Shown piece by piece: positions 8,838 through 46,789 of a stretch of 64,000 nucleotides of DNA (the first letter of the stretch is position 1; every line of letters begins with the position of its first letter). Source of the DNA: a virus (Duplodnaviria; Heunggongvirae; Uroviricota; Caudoviricetes); the IMG/VR virus record IMGVR_UViG_3300037484_000445, positions 323,863 through 387,862 of that record, one strand, 5' to 3'. The translations under genes and the position numbers were made by a program. The notes beneath the pieces are model-generated. The model was given only the letters and a program-made list of their open reading frames with translations, ran no database searches and was not told the DNA's origin.

Positions 8838-8841
8838 GATT

Positions 8842-8855
8842 GGTGTATATACACC
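8842..8855. promoter_or_regulatory. Bidirectional class II motif
   Basis: Perfect palindrome GGTGTATATACACC, with start codons 10 nt (+) and 12 nt (-) downstream. Confidence 0.65.
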
Positions 8856-8857
8856 GA

Positions 8858-24654: not shown

Positions 24655-25050
24655 CTAACCGACACTCAGGGGTTCAACCTTGATGACCGATCGACCCATG
24701 GCGTGGTAGTAACCCTCTTTTGCTTCACAGCTCTCACAGACGAAGTGCTTTCCAGCGAGAATTTTAGTATGCCTCAAACCCCACAGCTTGATAGCCGTCA
24801 GGGACGTAAGCTTTCGCTTGTAAGTCTTCATGTAAGGGCGGTACTTGCGGCGTGTCTTGACTTTCTTTGGGGGTCCTAGCTCGGCAACAGCTAGCTTCAG
24901 GGCTTCTTCGACGGTAGCCTCCATAGAAATCCTGCTCTCCAGGGCCATGTTACCCCCACAGACACAAAGAATCGGCATGGCTCCTCTATACACCGATCCT
25001 AAGGGTTGGTGTATAGAGGAGCCATGCATTTCTGTGGCAACCCCTTCCAT
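24655..25050 (-). CDS. Zn-ribbon hypothetical protein
   Basis: CVCGG...CESC; start probably MPILC. Confidence 0.6.
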   Translation of the reverse strand: MEGVATEMHGSSIHQPLGSVYRGAMPILCVCGGNMALESRISMEATVEEALKLAVAELGPPKKVKTRRKYRPYMKTYKRKLTSLTAIKLWGLRHTKILAGKHFVCESCEAKEGYYHAMGRSVIKVEPLSVG

Positions 25051-26047: not shown

Positions 26048-26926
26048 CTAGTTGAGTTCGTAATCCTCGGGCCGTTCAGGCCTTAAATACCAACCAACAT
26101 AGGACGCATCTGAACGGCCTTCGACCGTAAAAACGCGATCCTTGGGGATACCCTCCGGATGCCAGGGACTCTCACGAAGAGTCTTTATGCAACGCATTTG
26201 AACCACACGAAAGACGAATTCGCCTCGTTGTTCCGGGGCATCGCTCAGAACGGTAACTAGCCAGCGTCCTCCGTCCTCGTGGTAAACGTGTCGAACTTCT
26301 GTCATGAAAGGGCCTTCCATCTGCAGCGTAGCACTACAGGGCTTGAGGTCGGATCGCTTCAGCACAATACGCAACGTGGGCTCATACTGAGTCCCCGTCG
26401 TGTCCTTCGGGATGAGACACGGTGGCGGTCTTAGGCCATCGAAAAAGTGATTGGCTTGCAAAACACTATAGTCCTCCAGGCGTGGCGTTGAAGTTCTATG
26501 CCCGGTCGATTCATAGCTCTCTATGACAGCAGCCATCGAAAGCTCAAGGGCAGCCCCCTCCGGTACTGGAATGAGACGTATGAAGCTCTCCTCAGCCGAG
26601 GGTCCACTCCGTGTGTACTGGACCCAGTACTCGGCCCCATCGGTTGACCCCTTAAGCCTCAATAAGGCGTTCATGTGGAGCCACATAGGCCCGAAGTACA
26701 CGACCGGGTTGTCTTCCCAAGGAAATCCCTCTGAAGACTGGTGCGGTCCACTATGGCCCGCCGTCAAGGCACACAAAAGACGTATGCACCCTTCCTCGTC
26801 GTCGTAATCTAAAGCACTAGGGCAAGCGGCACCATGCCGGTCTAAGATCCGTTGGCGATGGGCATCCAGTGCCTCTTGGCTTGGAGTCTCAAGCATTTCT
26901 CGATCAAAACGGTCCTTCTCAGTCAT
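26048..26926 (-). CDS. Hypothetical protein
   Basis: Start MTEKD overlaps the upstream stop. Confidence 0.7.
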   Translation of the reverse strand: MTEKDRFDREMLETPSQEALDAHRQRILDRHGAACPSALDYDDEEGCIRLLCALTAGHSGPHQSSEGFPWEDNPVVYFGPMWLHMNALLRLKGSTDGAEYWVQYTRSGPSAEESFIRLIPVPEGAALELSMAAVIESYESTGHRTSTPRLEDYSVLQANHFFDGLRPPPCLIPKDTTGTQYEPTLRIVLKRSDLKPCSATLQMEGPFMTEVRHVYHEDGGRWLVTVLSDAPEQRGEFVFRVVQMRCIKTLRESPWHPEGIPKDRVFTVEGRSDASYVGWYLRPERPEDYELN

Positions 26927-27831: not shown

Positions 27832-28469
27832 TAAAGGGCCTTTTTCAGCTCACTACGACGTGCCGCTGCCTCTTCAGGAGTCTCGATTGGAGCGTCCTTC
27901 AACACAAGATTGAGTACAGCGACCACGAAGTCGCTGCTACCGCTGCAATAGACCAGTTTGTCCAACAGATTGCGAATGAACGTGAAGATGCCACTGAAGT
28001 CCTCACGGCTCAGGTATTCGGAGATCTCTTGAGAGAACTTCGGATCTAGCTGAGTGCCCGGAGCTTTCACGAGCTCGCTCAATAGGGCTACAATGGGGGA
28101 TGGGGGATCCTCGTACCAAAGTGTTGGATCCCAAATGTCTTTGCCTGCAAGATGTTTCCCCCACTCCTCCTTGGTGGCTAGCCGGAAGTCCCCGTCGAGA
28201 TACGTGTCGGGATCTTCGTGATTGTCGCTTACGAGACGCCCCTTCCAAACGTAAACCCCCGAGGCAACTCCTTCGCAGCAAGGATCTAGGTAGTCGTCCA
28301 TCATTCCGGCGTCGGAGATGTAGCTAAACCCAGGACCAATGTGGTCCAAGACCAATGCTCTCCCTTCGTGAACGACGACCAACGCCATGTCGTCTGGGCA
28401 GGGGCGACGGTACTTAGGGGGAGCGGGGCCGTCGGATTGGAGTGCTTGAAAGATTTGAGGTTCGGACAT
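27831..28469 (-). CDS. Hypothetical protein
   Basis: 212 aa. Confidence 0.7.
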   Translation of the reverse strand: MSEPQIFQALQSDGPAPPKYRRPCPDDMALVVVHEGRALVLDHIGPGFSYISDAGMMDDYLDPCCEGVASGVYVWKGRLVSDNHEDPDTYLDGDFRLATKEEWGKHLAGKDIWDPTLWYEDPPSPIVALLSELVKAPGTQLDPKFSQEISEYLSREDFSGIFTFIRNLLDKLVYCSGSSDFVVAVLNLVLKDAPIETPEEAAARRSELKKAL

Positions 28470-28909
28470 TAGTTCATCTCAACAAATAGGTGTAAGGCTA
28501 GTTTGCTTGAATCTAGGCCCAAATCAGTCAACAATGGCTCAAGAAGGGCAGTCTCTTCTTTTAGCTTGTCTAAGCTATAGGTGTTTATCTTGTTGGTTCC
28601 GGCATCCATCAGATCGGTCCCAAACACAGTGGTGCCCAGACGTGGCCCCCGATAGATATACACACTCAACCGCTTCAAGGCCTCAACTACAGTGATTTTG
28701 GCTTTATCTGCGTAAGCTATTAAGGTAGGCGACGGTTCCCACTTGTGCTTGTTTGTAATAGCCTGACCACAACATGGACAGTAGGGCTGATCTGTGATTG
28801 TGTGCTTACGGTCTTTAGGACAGGTACGTTCCAAAGCACCTTTGACTTGCAGAAGCTCTTCAGGCATCGCAACCCCAAGAATGACTGTACCGTAGGCAGA
28901 TAAACTCAT
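28469..28909 (-). CDS. Hypothetical protein
   Basis: ATG 11 nt after GGTGTA; CPCC motif. Confidence 0.7.
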   Translation of the reverse strand: MSLSAYGTVILGVAMPEELLQVKGALERTCPKDRKHTITDQPYCPCCGQAITNKHKWEPSPTLIAYADKAKITVVEALKRLSVYIYRGPRLGTTVFGTDLMDAGTNKINTYSLDKLKEETALLEPLLTDLGLDSSKLALHLFVEMN

Positions 28910-42030: not shown

Positions 42031-42071
42031 GTCAAGGGGTATACACCAAGAACCGGTGTATCTAGAACGCT

Positions 42072-43419: not shown

Positions 43420-43665
43420 CTACGAACCTTTGATCTCCTCAACGGATACCGGCGAACCCAATAGGGTTTCACCGCCTATCACAAACCGCTTGTCGGCAAA
43501 TAGATTGGACGCCGCCTCGTAGGCTATGTCGTTAACACTCTCGCCCTGGTTGACCTCAACCTCAAGAACGACCTGTGCCTTGCTCCCAACACGCTTACCT
43601 GAAAAGGCTAGGAATATATTGTAGGTGACTCGGTACCTCATAGGCATGTGATTATTCTCGATCAC
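43420..43665 (-). CDS. Hypothetical protein coupled to iscB
   Basis: GTG start overlaps the iscB TGA. Confidence 0.65.
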   Translation of the reverse strand: MIENNHMPMRYRVTYNIFLAFSGKRVGSKAQVVLEVEVNQGESVNDIAYEAASNLFADKRFVIGGETLLGSPVSVEEIKGS

Positions 43666-45089
43666 AAGTGGACTTCGTACCCACTAGTTCGCTCAACCAA
43701 GGTGAGCTTTCGAAACGTAATGTTGCGATCCTTGTCGGACCCAAAAACCCGGACTTGCATAGAACCCGAGGCCCTAGCCCCAACGACCCTAGCTAGAACA
43801 CCATCGGGAAGTCGAACAATGTCTCCCGTAGAGAAACCATGAGGCCGTTTGCCTAGCTCACCCCTCGACTTCTCAAGCTCACCCTTGGGATAGACTATCT
43901 CGGGCTTTCGTTGCCCTAAGCGTCCAGGGTCACGATAAAACATATGGCGTTTTCTCGGATGGCCTGGGCCAAGTTTGGCCTTAGGGAACCCGTAAGCATC
44001 GGTTTTCACCAGCTTGTGACTGCCACGCCCAATGCTCTTGATGAACAAGATCGGAATGTTCCAATACCGAATACGATCAACCTCACCCACGCAAAGGGCA
44101 TCATAGGCATGACCCTTAGGCACTCCTAGTCGCGTTCGATTCCACTTCGTTCTACCTCCGGTGCCTACAGCAACTTCAACTCCAAAGGTCTTCAGGAGAT
44201 CCCTCAAAGCCCAACGAGTCGAGTTCACAGCAGCGGCGTCCTTCAATGGAGCCTTCATCTGTGCCTTAATTCGGGCTAGGACTTTTGGCTTACCCTTGAG
44301 GAACTCCTCCAAAGGTCGATTGCTCTTCCTCAGATTACAGGGCCTGCAGGCTGTACATAAGTTGCTTACACGATCGCTGCCACCGCGGGACCTAGCCTCG
44401 ATGTGATCTAGCTCCAGAGGTACATCCTTGGCTTCACAATAGGCACACTTGTGTCCCCATTTTAGCAAGACATACTCACGCACTTCATAGCCGAACAAAG
44501 TGCCCTGTTGATACTCAACGCCTTGGATTTCAGCGTTCTCCAACTTTTGAAGGTCGAAGCGTACAAGCTCTTGCACTATGCGTGTAACAGGCACCAACTT
44601 ACTGAGACGTCTAACCCACGTCACGACGTTCTCGAGACGATTCCGAATGCTCGGTGCAAGCCAACCTTCTGGTTTGGCCCTGTGCTTGAACCTTCCACCA
44701 GGGCACTTCTCACGCTGCTTTTGATTACTAGATAGGTTCAACGGCGTCTTTCGCCGAAGACCTCCACAACGGTATCTCAAGTTGGCCGAACGGCGACGTC
44801 GGCGACACGCCGAGCGACTTTTCAGGTTGTCCCTTACCCTAGAACCCTTGTGCTCGATTTCAGCCAGGTATACGGGACGATCGTTGGCGACAACAGCCAC
44901 ACCCGTGTACTTCGATCCCGGATCCAATTTCAAGTCAAGCGGCTGCGTATGCTCTGATGTGAGCTTCTTGAGACGTATCGTGAAAGGCATACGCTTGACT
45001 ACTACGGCTTCACCACTCCGTAGAAGCTTGCGTGCCTTCTGGGGCTTGGCCGGCATCAAAGGCCTGCCTTTATAGTCTAAGCAAAACAC
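43662..45089 (-). CDS. iscB: IscB RNA-guided endonuclease (OMEGA family), CRISPR-associated
   Basis: PLMP domain (VFCLDYKGRPLMP), RuvC-I LKLDPGSKYTG, Arg-rich bridge helix RRRRRSANLRYR, GWLAPS, RuvC-II IVQELVRFD, HNH CAYC...LDHIEARSRGG...N...CN, RuvC-III GHAYDA, C-terminal GFSTGDIV. Canonical start would be GTG at 45089; an alternative in-frame ATG lies at 45470. Confidence 0.97.
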   Translation of the reverse strand: MFCLDYKGRPLMPAKPQKARKLLRSGEAVVVKRMPFTIRLKKLTSEHTQPLDLKLDPGSKYTGVAVVANDRPVYLAEIEHKGSRVRDNLKSRSACRRRRRSANLRYRCGGLRRKTPLNLSSNQKQREKCPGGRFKHRAKPEGWLAPSIRNRLENVVTWVRRLSKLVPVTRIVQELVRFDLQKLENAEIQGVEYQQGTLFGYEVREYVLLKWGHKCAYCEAKDVPLELDHIEARSRGGSDRVSNLCTACRPCNLRKSNRPLEEFLKGKPKVLARIKAQMKAPLKDAAAVNSTRWALRDLLKTFGVEVAVGTGGRTKWNRTRLGVPKGHAYDALCVGEVDRIRYWNIPILFIKSIGRGSHKLVKTDAYGFPKAKLGPGHPRKRHMFYRDPGRLGQRKPEIVYPKGELEKSRGELGKRPHGFSTGDIVRLPDGVLARVVGARASGSMQVRVFGSDKDRNITFRKLTLVERTSGYEVHL

Positions 45090-45096
45090 CCGGTGA

Positions 45097-45470
45097 GGGT
45101 GCCGTGGAGTTTCCTCTACGGCACCCTTCGGGTTTCCCCTGAGATTATCAGGGCAGCCTTGCGGCTGTGACGACGTATCAGGTAGCTGCCCAGTTACGTC
45201 ACCTCTAGGAATTGTATCAGAATGACCTTCAGGACTTGCGTCCGTCTGCTCCGCCCCGTTTCGGGATTGTTGTCTGCTGACAGAGCTTCGAGAGCCCGGA
45301 ACTGAGGAAGCATTCCGGGGTCTTATTGATATCGTTTCTGAGCACGCTTCACGTGGGGACTTGCTCGTACCACGTGATATCCTTGGACACCCTGTTAACG
45401 GATTTTTAGGTCCGTCTGAACCGAATCCTTTAGCTCTTCTCACCTCTCGCAAAGGCGTGTCCGTCTTCAT
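45097..45470 (-). ncRNA. omegaRNA-like scaffold with 5' anti-repeat (tracr-omega RNA)
   Basis: HEARO/omega-type motif CCCCGGAATGCTTCCTCAGTTCCGGGCTCT (45320-45291), CAATTCCTAGAGG, several hairpins (TCACGTGG/CCACGTGA, CAGCC-GCAA-GGCTG, GGGTGCCGT/ACGGCACCC), directly upstream of iscB. Ends are approximate. Confidence 0.85.
45417..45443 (-). ncRNA. Anti-repeat (tracrRNA-like)
   Basis: GTGAGAAGAGCTAAAGGATTCGGTTCA pairs with 27 nt of the minus-strand repeat (one G:U against the consensus). Confidence 0.92.
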
Positions 45471-45482
45471 CTGCAGTCCTTC

Positions 45483-45488
45483 TACACC
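45483..45488 (-). promoter_or_regulatory. Class II motif for the tracr-omega/iscB transcript
   Basis: GGTGTA 12 nt before the in-frame ATG at 45470. Confidence 0.6.
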
Positions 45489-45595
45489 GATCGTGACGTC
45501 ATCCGACAAACTATTTTCAGGTTCGAGAGTTTTATCGAGACCCCCTCGCAAACCTGATTGAATACCGTTGGAATCATTGGGGTCCTGAAGGGAGG

Positions 45596-46271
45596 GTGAG
45601 AAGAGCTAAAGGACTCGGTTCATAAGGTGACGCCGTCCTAATCGAGTTACTCACCAGGGACAAGGCGTGAGAAGAGCTAAAGGACTCGGTTCATAAGGTG
45701 ACACTCGTCCTCGTCGAGACCCCAGTCCTCCTCCTCGTTGTGAGAAGAGCTAAAGGACTCGGTTCATAAGGTGACTGGCCGTTCCGTTGTGATAGATCCA
45801 TTGGTAGATAGGTGAGAAGAGCTAAAGGACTCGGTTCATAAGGTGACTACTCAGTCTCAGTCTGACCCTTGAGGATGGCAGTAGGTGAGGAGAGCTAAAG
45901 GATTCGGTTCATAAGGTGACGGGGCACGACCTATAGCGTGTACTGGTAGGGGTGTGAGGGGAGCTAAAGGACTCGGTTCATAAGGTGACTCGTGCTTCGT
46001 GATCTCCCCGATTGGCGAAGAAGGGTGAGAAGAGCTAAAGGATTCGGTTCATAGGATGACGACCAACCAACGCTGTCATGGCTATCGTGTTGGCAGTGAG
46101 AAGAGCTAAAGGGTCCGGTTCATAAGATGACTGCTCAGTGTCACCACTGTTCTGGCAAGTTTGAGGTGAGAAAAGCTAAAGGATTCGGTTCATAAGGTGA
46201 CGAGTCTCCGACCACTGCGGTTCCAGCTCTTGTAGGTGAGAAGAGCTAAAGGACTCGATTCGTAAGGTGAC
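45596..46271 (-). CRISPR. CRISPR array, 10 repeats / 9 spacers
   Basis: 36-nt repeats start at 45596, 45667, 45740, 45812, 45885, 45954, 46025, 46096, 46166 and 46236; minus-strand consensus GTCACCTTATGAACCGAGTCCTTTAGCTCTTCTCAC; unique spacers of 33-37 nt. Strand inferred from the anti-repeat and promoter. Confidence 0.98.
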
Positions 46272-46300: not shown

Positions 46301-46789
46301 TCATAGGGTGGCCGGGCGAGAGAGCTCAGCCAACTTCCTATACACCGAGAGGTCACCGAAATACCTCGGAGGATACCCGCCCTCCAAAGTACTCCCCACC
46401 AAACCCCGCTCAATCAACCGCCTAAGCGCTTCCTTTACCTCGGCTTCCCGTTGCCCCCTCTCCAGGTCCTCGGCCGCGAATTGGGCCTCTATGGCCTCGC
46501 AATAGCCCTTGTCCTCGTAGTTGTCGTTAGGCGGTTGAATCCGCTCCAAGTACACCCGGTTCGTCCCGTACCAGTCCTCAGCCAAACCCTCCTCCCCCAC
46601 AGGACTCACCAGAACCTGGCCCAATACCCACCGGTCTACCTCGTCAGCAAGTATCCCACGGTCCTTCACCTCTGCCGCCATCACTTCGCCCAACACCCTG
46701 CGGACGTAGCCGATCTCTACGTCCGGACACATCGAATGAGGATTCTCAACCTTGCTCCAAATCAGCTTCAAAATGTCAGGTACTTGCAT
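46301..46789 (-). CDS. Hypothetical protein, possible C-terminal winged helix
   Basis: 162 aa; EVKEALRRLIERGLV. Confidence 0.7.
   Translation of the reverse strand: MQVPDILKLIWSKVENPHSMCPDVEIGYVRRVLGEVMAAEVKDRGILADEVDRWVLGQVLVSPVGEEGLAEDWYGTNRVYLERIQPPNDNYEDKGYCEAIEAQFAAEDLERGQREAEVKEALRRLIERGLVGSTLEGGYPPRYFGDLSVYRKLAELSRPATL
46341..46346 (-). promoter_or_regulatory. Class II motif upstream of the array
   Basis: TCGGTGTATA about 70 nt before the first minus-strand repeat, inside the upstream ORF's 3' end. Confidence 0.55.

Follow-up and report, generated by a model that had tools for sequence, protein, structure and literature searches.

An iscB gene of huge phages that is probably translated through its own guide RNA scaffold

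Introduction

IscB and Cas9 guide RNAs are regarded as non-coding, and the cloning of IscB genes starts at the M-x-VFVL position. CRISPR-associated IscB was reportedly already covered by Altae-Tran and colleagues in 2021. Here, we analyzed an iscB gene together with its trans-activating CRISPR RNA (tracrRNA)/omega RNA scaffold in a stretch of 64,000 nucleotides (hereafter the window), corresponding to positions 323,863 to 387,862 of the IMG/VR record IMGVR_UViG_3300037484_000445, a virus record of 451,925 bp that is 94% complete. We consider it likely that the iscB of this phage clade starts upstream of the usual N-terminus and is read through the tracrRNA/omega scaffold.

Among the described systems, the CRISPR-associated DelIscB (Zhang et al. 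2025, PMC12660989) resembles the locus of the window in its compact protein made of PLMP, RuvC, bridge helix, and HNH parts. It also has a CRISPR array, an omega-derived tracrRNA with its anti-repeat between array and gene, and no adaptation genes. That paper treats the RNA as a separate non-coding RNA, and a search of its main text returned nothing on a reading frame through that RNA (PMC12660989). The OMEGA IscB proteins OgeuIscB (PMC9640706) and GstIscB (Meers et al., bioRxiv 10.1101/2023.03.14.532601) share with our locus the protein architecture and a scaffold located 5' of the gene on the same strand, whose core in our locus matches the HEARO RNA in part and below threshold. Their omega RNA has been described as a 5' untranslated region, "upstream of or overlapping" the open reading frame (ORF) (PMC9755519; bioRxiv 10.1101/2023.03.14.532601). 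The TnpB omegaRNA is also comparable, as some nucleotides of this guide RNA scaffold also code for the cognate nuclease (Meers et al. 2023, bioRxiv 10.1101/2023.03.14.532601).

Results

The iscB frame is open through the scaffold in the window

All features of the locus lie on the minus strand. The extended iscB frame (43662 to 45470) runs from ATG 45470 to the TGA at 43664-43662, giving 602 codons plus the stop. It joins the canonical IscB body of 475 residues (43662 to 45089, from GTG 45089), with the PLMP motif, the RuvC/bridge helix (RRXRR), the HNH, and the C-terminal domains, to an N-terminal extension of 127 codons (45090 to 45470) that is rich in Ser, Pro, Arg, Gly, and Thr and overlaps the tracr/omega scaffold. 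The open frame thus includes the tracrRNA anti-repeat (45412 to 45443), complementary to the CRISPR repeats (inverted repeats I1 to I10, 84-100% complementary), and the omega-like, multi-stem scaffold RNA (45096 to 45393), which shows covariation in RNAalifold and ends in a terminal hairpin at 45127-45096.

The initial annotation had proposed that an ATG preceded by a GGTGTA motif opens a frame that continues into iscB without a stop, and this was confirmed. The motif (45488-45483) is followed after 12 nt by ATG 45470, and the 381 nt from there to 45089 form 127 codons with zero stops, through anti-repeat and scaffold into iscB. Measured from stop to stop, the iscB frame extends 172 codons upstream of GTG 45089; the other two frames contain 7 and 14 stops over the same stretch (154 codons). 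The usual start region, also as annotated, has no ATG. Its only start codon is GTG 45089, directly behind a strong 14-bp hairpin (45127-45096). The GAGG at 45116-45113 is located in the apex of this hairpin, at a distance of 23 nt from the GTG.

This GTG encodes the V of the conserved VFCLDYKGRPLMP / VFCLD, the VFVL-like strand of the N-terminal PLMP domain. In Pfam searches, the IscB body matched PF14239 (RRXRR) with E = 8.5e-62 over the full profile and PF01844 (HNH) with E = 9.3e-11. The RRXRR match begins at that same V, which is residue 155 of the ORF when started at a TTG, and the 154 residues ahead of it had no Pfam match. The architecture is that of IscB, a RuvC domain split by an Arg-rich bridge helix and an inserted HNH, without a recognition (REC) lobe.

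When mononucleotides were shuffled, 127 codons remained open in 0.35% of the trials and 154 codons in 0.075%. Openness in the window alone is unusual and, for one window of a large scan, not decisive. It could be a matter of chance or inheritance, IscB starting at GTG 45089 or at the PLMP methionine and the upstream stretch being an untranslated RNA that is fairly GC-rich and conserved. The single window, with P of about 0.003 among the many scanned, is compatible with this explanation, as are the presence of GTG 45089, the lack of amino acid-level selection, and the atypical GC content by codon position (both detailed below). Moreover, some loci of the wider survey, such as L041, L068, and L091, are open by chance for 80-94 codons despite a start next to V.

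The open frame is kept in related lineages

We found 7999 IscB-like homologs, the nearest of which (51-92% identity) are often called at 574-609 residues and not at about 450. Relatives with DNA were L006, L007, L008/L009, L010, L011, L012/L013, L014/L015, L016, and L104; together with the window, they represent eight lineages with 51-92% protein identity, and three are on contigs of 442-452 kb. Scans of IMG/VR with the single protein and with the alignment gave no further close relatives.

Upstream of VF(C/V)L, all eight lineages had an open iscB frame of 112-172 codons (172 codons in the window and in L006, 112 in L007 and L008, 157 in L010, 126 in L011, 132 in L012, 166 in L014, 116 in L016, and 156 in L104). 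The non-iscB frames of these lineages have 1-10 stops per 100 codons. From the anti-repeat to V, zero stops were found in frame 0 of all seven aligned lineages, and frames 1 and 2 had stops at 15 and 26 distinct alignment columns, respectively. As 11 and 17 of these columns carry no stop in the window's own sequence, those stops arose or persisted in other lineages. We also shuffled the alignment columns, keeping conservation and relatedness; none of 20,000 trials kept all seven lineages open. The window's own row stayed open in 332 trials, and in 0 of these were all seven open.

Indels follow the same frame. The six single indels of the seven-lineage alignment measure 3, 3, 3, 6, 6, and 18 nt, each a multiple of three, and an earlier alignment showed a 21-nt deletion in L007/L008 relative to the window. 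Three indels are not multiples of three, yet each is compensated nearby: -1/+1 within 18 nt in the window lineage, +1/+2 within 18 nt in L016, and +11/-20 within about 50 nt in L104. The expectation of indels in multiples of three only, raised by the initial annotation, therefore held for the single indels and had to be widened for these three pairs. No uncompensated scaffold frameshift was present in the aligned lineages, and every lineage holds the window's codon phase from just past the anti-repeat to the V codon. Stops or frameshifts in the scaffold of homologs were to refute the proposal according to the initial annotation, and the proposal came through this check with eight lineages open.

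The usual start is also missing in most lineages. Only the window and L006-L008 have GTG as the V codon; L010, L011, L012, and L104 have GTT, and L014 has GTA. The five lineages with GTT or GTA have no start codon at V, and L014 in addition has PLAP in place of PLMP. In the window and its relatives, the M-x-VFVL start next to the VFVL strand was not encountered, there being no ATG at that place. The nearest in-frame ATG, GTG, or TTG lies 100 codons upstream in L010 and 54 in L014, and the starts found at -14 to -17 in L011, L012, and L016 do not align with one another. On the other hand, the codons of VF(C/V)L vary synonymously (GTG/GTT/GTA, TTT/TTC, and GTC/GTT). This variation indicates that the strand is translated, and the start must therefore lie upstream of it. 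Near-cognate starts (ATC, ATA, and ATT) near V in the start-less lineages were considered and rejected, having no conserved position.

A protein starting at V155 or at PLMP does not agree with five lineages that lack a start at V, one of them also lacking the PLMP methionine. Chance or inherited openness is very unlikely in view of eight lineages that stayed open while the other frames gained 11 and 17 stop columns, of column shuffles that never left all lineages open, and of indels that are multiples of three or compensated; it is further opposed by surveyed loci with a start next to V, which are not depleted of in-frame stops (see below). Judging from this comparison, selection in all eight lineages keeps the scaffold in frame and free of stops.

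Metagenome contigs also revealed strain-level single-nucleotide polymorphisms (SNPs) at 45105, 45207, 45377, 45415, and other positions (10 SNPs, no indels). At 45207, A>T turns CCT into CCA, a synonymous change in the extended frame, and T>C at 45105 is a hairpin variant shared with L006. Three DNA runs were covered, along with one run doubtfully assigned to RNA that matched nothing but the conserved 37-nt core; no RNA run containing the locus was found.

A genome-wide motif marks the upstream start

GGTGTA is present 317 times in the genome, and in 109 cases an ATG follows after 9-13 nt, with a peak at 10, so that the spacing at iscB resembles that of many ordinary genes, as initially annotated. 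Ninety-nine of the 109 motif-linked ATGs open ORFs of at least 60 codons, and eight control hexamers gave no comparable peak of ATG distance. GGTGTA is the top-enriched hexamer before gene starts (20-fold) and the main signal of this kind in the phage. The motif reads YYGGTGTAT, with nothing conserved upstream and no -35-like partner, and in the window we counted 33 YGGTGTAT against 1.9 expected. At iscB it is present as CGGTGTA (45483 to 45489), 12 nt before ATG 45470, where, based on these genome-wide statistics, it is probably a promoter. Other examples in the window are at 8841-8856, 24988-25014, and 42041-42061, and at 24965-25024 two copies of the motif form a perfect inverted repeat of 16 nt.

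GGTGTA followed by an ATG in frame with iscB was found in the window, L010, L011, L012, and L104, with a spacer of 14 nt in L012 and of 12 nt in the others. An in-frame stop precedes the motif-linked ATG by 1 codon in L011 and by 4 codons in L012, and the ORF therefore begins there. L007/L008 differ in having a rearranged upstream region, in which the aligned ATG has been lost. GGTGTA now stands 10 nt before an in-frame GTG that coincides with the first base of the anti-repeat and is the first start of the ORF, and a TAG formed by the motif itself closes the frame just upstream. This independent re-creation of the motif, a distance of about 10 nt, an in-frame start, and an open frame gives strong support to the proposal. 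The promoter-proximal start is conserved or functionally replaced in six lineages, and in the window it is most likely ATG 45470. Overall, the comparison of lineages gives good support to an upstream, motif-marked start from which the scaffold is translated. As a separate observation, the related huge phage with L007/L008 (contig of 448,843 bp, GCA_040961665.1) has a different, shorter repeat and anti-repeat (GTGAGAACTGCTAA…).

Several observations bear on how the motif works. Leaderless messages such as that of lambda cI start at a 5'-terminal AUG without a Shine-Dalgarno sequence; at iscB, we likewise found a motif at short distance before the ATG with no Shine-Dalgarno sequence in between. 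A scan with sigma-70 and terminator consensus sequences returned nothing relevant near the start or between scaffold and gene. YGGTGTA(T) is a probable -10-type promoter for a phage sigma factor, and the messages behind it would be leaderless or nearly so. Two ORFs of 250 and 259 residues match sigma-70 region 2 (35.1 and 22.5 bits; G000:C1:270016-270207 and 2591-2785, outside the window) and are candidates for the factor reading GGTGTA; the phage record had no match to an RNA polymerase beta subunit.

GGTGTA might instead be an unusual ribosome-recruiting signal within a longer transcript, for instance one coming from the array promoter, in which case the scaffold would still be translated from a message that is not leaderless. 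A tight distance of 9-13 nt between motif and ATG is what a ribosome-binding site would show, nothing is conserved upstream of the motif, and no terminator separates the array from the tracr region. Beyond GGUG, however, the motif is a poor fit to the anti-Shine-Dalgarno sequence at the 3' end of 16S RNA, and its distance from the ATG is too large for such pairing. It also precedes sequences that are not translated, ending 13 nt before the 5' end of the tRNA-Leu(taa) gene at 26748 and standing in front of the non-coding CRISPR array. Moreover, it is found on about 18% of the crude genes, more like one copy per operon, and back-to-back copies in divergent intergenic regions of 40-46 bp leave no room for other promoters. 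We therefore regard a ribosome signal as unlikely and retain the promoter as the better description of GGTGTA. With it, about 100 genes of an uncultured 452-kb phage would have a candidate promoter and would probably be leaderless. ARAGORN, for its part, placed 48 tRNA genes in a cluster of about 20 kb (G000:C1:7573-27025, outside the window).

Openness goes with the absence of a local start in other IscB loci

We also surveyed 74 distinct IscB loci. In 50 of them, a start codon lies within four codons of V, typically as M-A-VFVLD or of the M(A/S)VFVLD type. Their in-frame stops (2.9 per 100 codons) are as frequent as those of the other frames (3.1 and 2.9), the open stretch has a median of 8 codons, and all three phases of the HEARO core occur (14, 13, and 20 loci). 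As these loci carry in-frame stops, the scaffold itself does not forbid stops in the frame of the gene. The remaining 24 loci, about a third, lack a nearby start. In these, 66-172 codons (median 98.5) are open into the omega RNA, and the HEARO core occurs in two phases only (12 and 12 loci). Openness goes with the absence of a local start. Start-less loci would be read in two fixed registers relative to the HEARO hairpin, one of them beginning at the AUG of the hairpin.

One metagenomic group without a start next to VFVL reads SGNAC-VFVL (L018, L023, L025, L029-L031, and L077; proteins P0013, P0029, P0060, P0071, and P0092). A conserved MLTRGSKAR, about 100 codons upstream of V, forms the beginning of its ORFs, in which the HEARO core is read in the register of the phage clade (…ASS.P.SR…SRQ…). 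The second register is used by L033, L034, L036, L039, L043, L047, L054, L056, L058, L070, L081, L083, L086, L089, and L093. In this group, a conserved AUG or GUG of the core loop (GGAAUGCUUCC) is in frame, giving M/V-LPQS.ALE (MLPQS...), about 50-90 and typically 55-65 codons before VFVL; this codon inside the guide RNA is a candidate start, as far as sequence can tell.

Whether reading through the guide RNA is a general and ancient option of IscB/IsrB, and not a quirk of one clade, is a broader proposal to which we give somewhat less than even credence. If it were true, translation and assembly of the ribonucleoprotein (RNP) would compete for the same RNA, providing a selfish nuclease with a built-in dosage control that was later lost or replaced in the Cas9 lineage.

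The scaffold is a structured RNA and the encoded tail seems unconstrained

On the seven lineages, RNAalifold predicted 90 pairs, 41 of them with compensatory changes, and the single-sequence fold of the scaffold had z = -5.2. The best-conserved hairpin (45291 to 45321) is the sole part matching the Rfam family HEARO (RF02033); cmscan reported this 31-nt core only, with 25.9 bits and E = 0.0056, below the gathering score of 83. By these comparative and folding criteria, the scaffold stretch is a real structured RNA.

The peptide encoded by the same nucleotides has a roughly conserved length (109-129 residues), 12% hydrophobic residues, and 20 K+R against 14 D+E. In an AlphaFold2 model of the 602-residue form, the tail had a predicted local distance difference test (pLDDT) score of 25-33 and no secondary structure. 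As the whole model is poor (mean pLDDT 45.9), the low confidence of the tail weakly supports disorder.

Several results weigh against translation through the scaffold from the upstream start. Variable columns are distributed over codon positions 1/2/3 as 51/53/53 of 89, with no periodicity, and pairwise ratios of nonsynonymous to synonymous substitution rates (dN/dS) in frame 0 of the extension are 0.56-1.24, the same as in two control frames. The case for translation therefore consists of the avoidance of stops, the lengths of indels, and the missing starts only. GC content by codon position is 0.58/0.58/0.44 in the extension and 0.58/0.45/0.54 in the gene body. The V codon of the window and L006-L008, a GTG, is a possible internal start; L014 and L016 are without the motif and their start is not placeable; and the motif could be a translation signal and not a promoter. 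In addition, the paper on DelIscB reports that N-terminal fusions lowered its activity and, in a model, collided with the guide's 3' stem-loop (PMC12660989). The PLMP domain contacts the terminal hairpins of omega RNA (PMC9640706), and a 127-residue tail at this place may thus be harmful unless it is removed or flexible.

The frame might also be kept because the extension is a functional domain or propeptide, such as an RNA-binding disordered arm or an inhibitory pro-sequence. Its richness in Arg, Ser, Pro, and Gly with an excess of basic residues, its roughly conserved length, and its attachment beside PLMP, a domain in contact with the guide RNA (PMC9640706), would suit such a role. On the contrary, dN/dS does not differ from the out-of-frame controls, the apparent conservation of the peptide follows the conserved RNA core, no Pfam family matches, and pLDDT is very low. 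The compensated indels, moreover, put short segments in a different frame in some lineages, meaning that short peptide segments were replaced wholesale. Considering the neutral dN/dS, we rejected the tail as a protein domain, and a functional extension is highly improbable. Judged by substitution patterns, the extension is selected for frame and freedom from stops, and its amino acid sequence is not conserved beyond the demands of the RNA. The N-terminal peptide of the upstream-started IscB thus seems to be a by-product that is tolerated, not a functional domain.

A CRISPR-associated locus of a huge phage

Along the minus strand, the locus consists of a CGGTGTAT motif, the CRISPR array, a second CGGTGTA, ATG 45470, the anti-repeat, the scaffold, and the IscB body. 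The array (45596 to 46271) has 10 repeats of 36 nt and spacers of 33-37 nt, with start-to-start distances of 69-73. The CGGTGTAT motif (46340 to 46347), about 68 nt upstream of the first repeat and with no gene start behind it, is the candidate array promoter. Neither Cas1 (PF01867; Cas2 was not searched for) nor the Y1 transposase TnpA (PF01797) was found in the 452-kb record. The locus is a CRISPR-associated IscB on a huge phage, for which RNA-guided DNA cleavage is predicted.

An 8-mer, TTTGCGAG, followed by (A/C/G)GG, occurs twice on the minus strand, at 45552-45545, about 45 nt after the last repeat, and at 45453-45446, directly before the anti-repeat. The first copy is kept in 7 of the 8 related lineages with DNA (L016 is without it) and the second in nearly all lineages, L012 and L104 keeping only GCGAG. 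The HEARO core contains CUCUCG (around 45296-45291), the complement of CGAGAG, which would allow for a pseudoknot or a processing site; covariation was not observed. Outside the window, two ORFs of about 200 residues near the tRNA region (G000:C1:27778-27951 and 28426-28608) have 36-39% identity to the HNH part of IscB only, and they are probably stand-alone HNH endonucleases.

Discussion

The initial annotation had suggested that an IscB of about 602 residues is made from a leaderless message that doubles as scaffold RNA. Of this proposal, translation through the scaffold is what the comparison of lineages upholds well, and the leaderless start rests on the statistics of the motif. One transcript probably serves as both guide RNA and messenger, considering that structure and open frame are kept in the same nucleotides.

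In the mechanism that we propose, transcription would begin at or within a few nucleotides of ATG 45470, and the primary transcript would be a leaderless mRNA whose first 375 nt or so are the tracrRNA. Ribosomes would load on the 5' AUG and cross the scaffold to reach the IscB domains. A stop or frameshift in the scaffold would then abolish IscB, and such changes would be purged. The product would be an IscB with a disordered N-terminal tail of about 110-127 residues, set by the sequence of the RNA. One molecule would not be folded scaffold and translated message simultaneously. As the two uses would be mutually exclusive and the anti-repeat is 27 nt from the AUG, pairing of the CRISPR RNA (crRNA) or binding of IscB might block translation. 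Also speculatively, IscB binding or crRNA pairing at the anti-repeat might switch the transcript from message to guide, possibly with RNase III cleavage after crRNA pairing, and such a switch might provide negative feedback that matches the protein to the RNA.

We think that these results are of clear interest to the field. If many IscBs are translated from inside or through their guide RNA, the annotations and expression constructs of such clades use the wrong start, and the protein made in nature has a tail with possible effects on activity or assembly. If the guide RNA is also the message, this would be a simple way for an RNA-guided nuclease to be dosed 1:1 and to limit itself. The locus would, moreover, be a clear case of selection that keeps a frame open without selecting the peptide, a kind of frame that standard coding-potential tests miss.

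IscB, omega RNA, and CRISPR-associated IscB are already known; the arrangement of a frame through the scaffold was found in none of the literature searched. That literature, with the 2021 founding paper and the DelIscB supplements lying outside the search, contained no frame conserved through an omega RNA or tracrRNA and no missing usual start. Compared to CRISPR-associated IscB as represented by DelIscB, the tracrRNA is here within the conserved frame of the nuclease, several lineages lack the usual start codon, and the system is carried by phages of about 450 kb. OMEGA proteins such as OgeuIscB and GstIscB start with M-A-V-x-V directly after the RNA, and the surveyed loci of that type have in-frame stops in the RNA; on the contrary, the guide of our locus is split into crRNA and tracrRNA, TnpA is absent, and the ORF spans the whole scaffold. 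In TnpB, the overlap of RNA and coding sequence is at the 3' end and concerns a normally conserved protein, whereas here it is at the 5' end and the peptide is apparently unconstrained.

The locus can also be compared with systems in which an RNA tunes its own effector. According to Workman and colleagues in 2021, a long-form tracrRNA reportedly makes Cas9 repress its own operon, transcriptionally at the promoter. By analogy, the tracrRNA of the phage iscB may also adjust its own effector, here through a proposed competition between translation and RNP assembly. In dual-function RNAs such as SgrS/SgrT and RNAIII/hld, one transcript is both regulatory RNA and message. Of the features of this class, the phage locus has covariation and a conserved overlapping ORF and lacks purifying selection on the peptide. 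Finally, the ORF of the known RNAs of this class is a small, separate peptide, whereas here the RNA would be fused in frame to the large effector that binds it.

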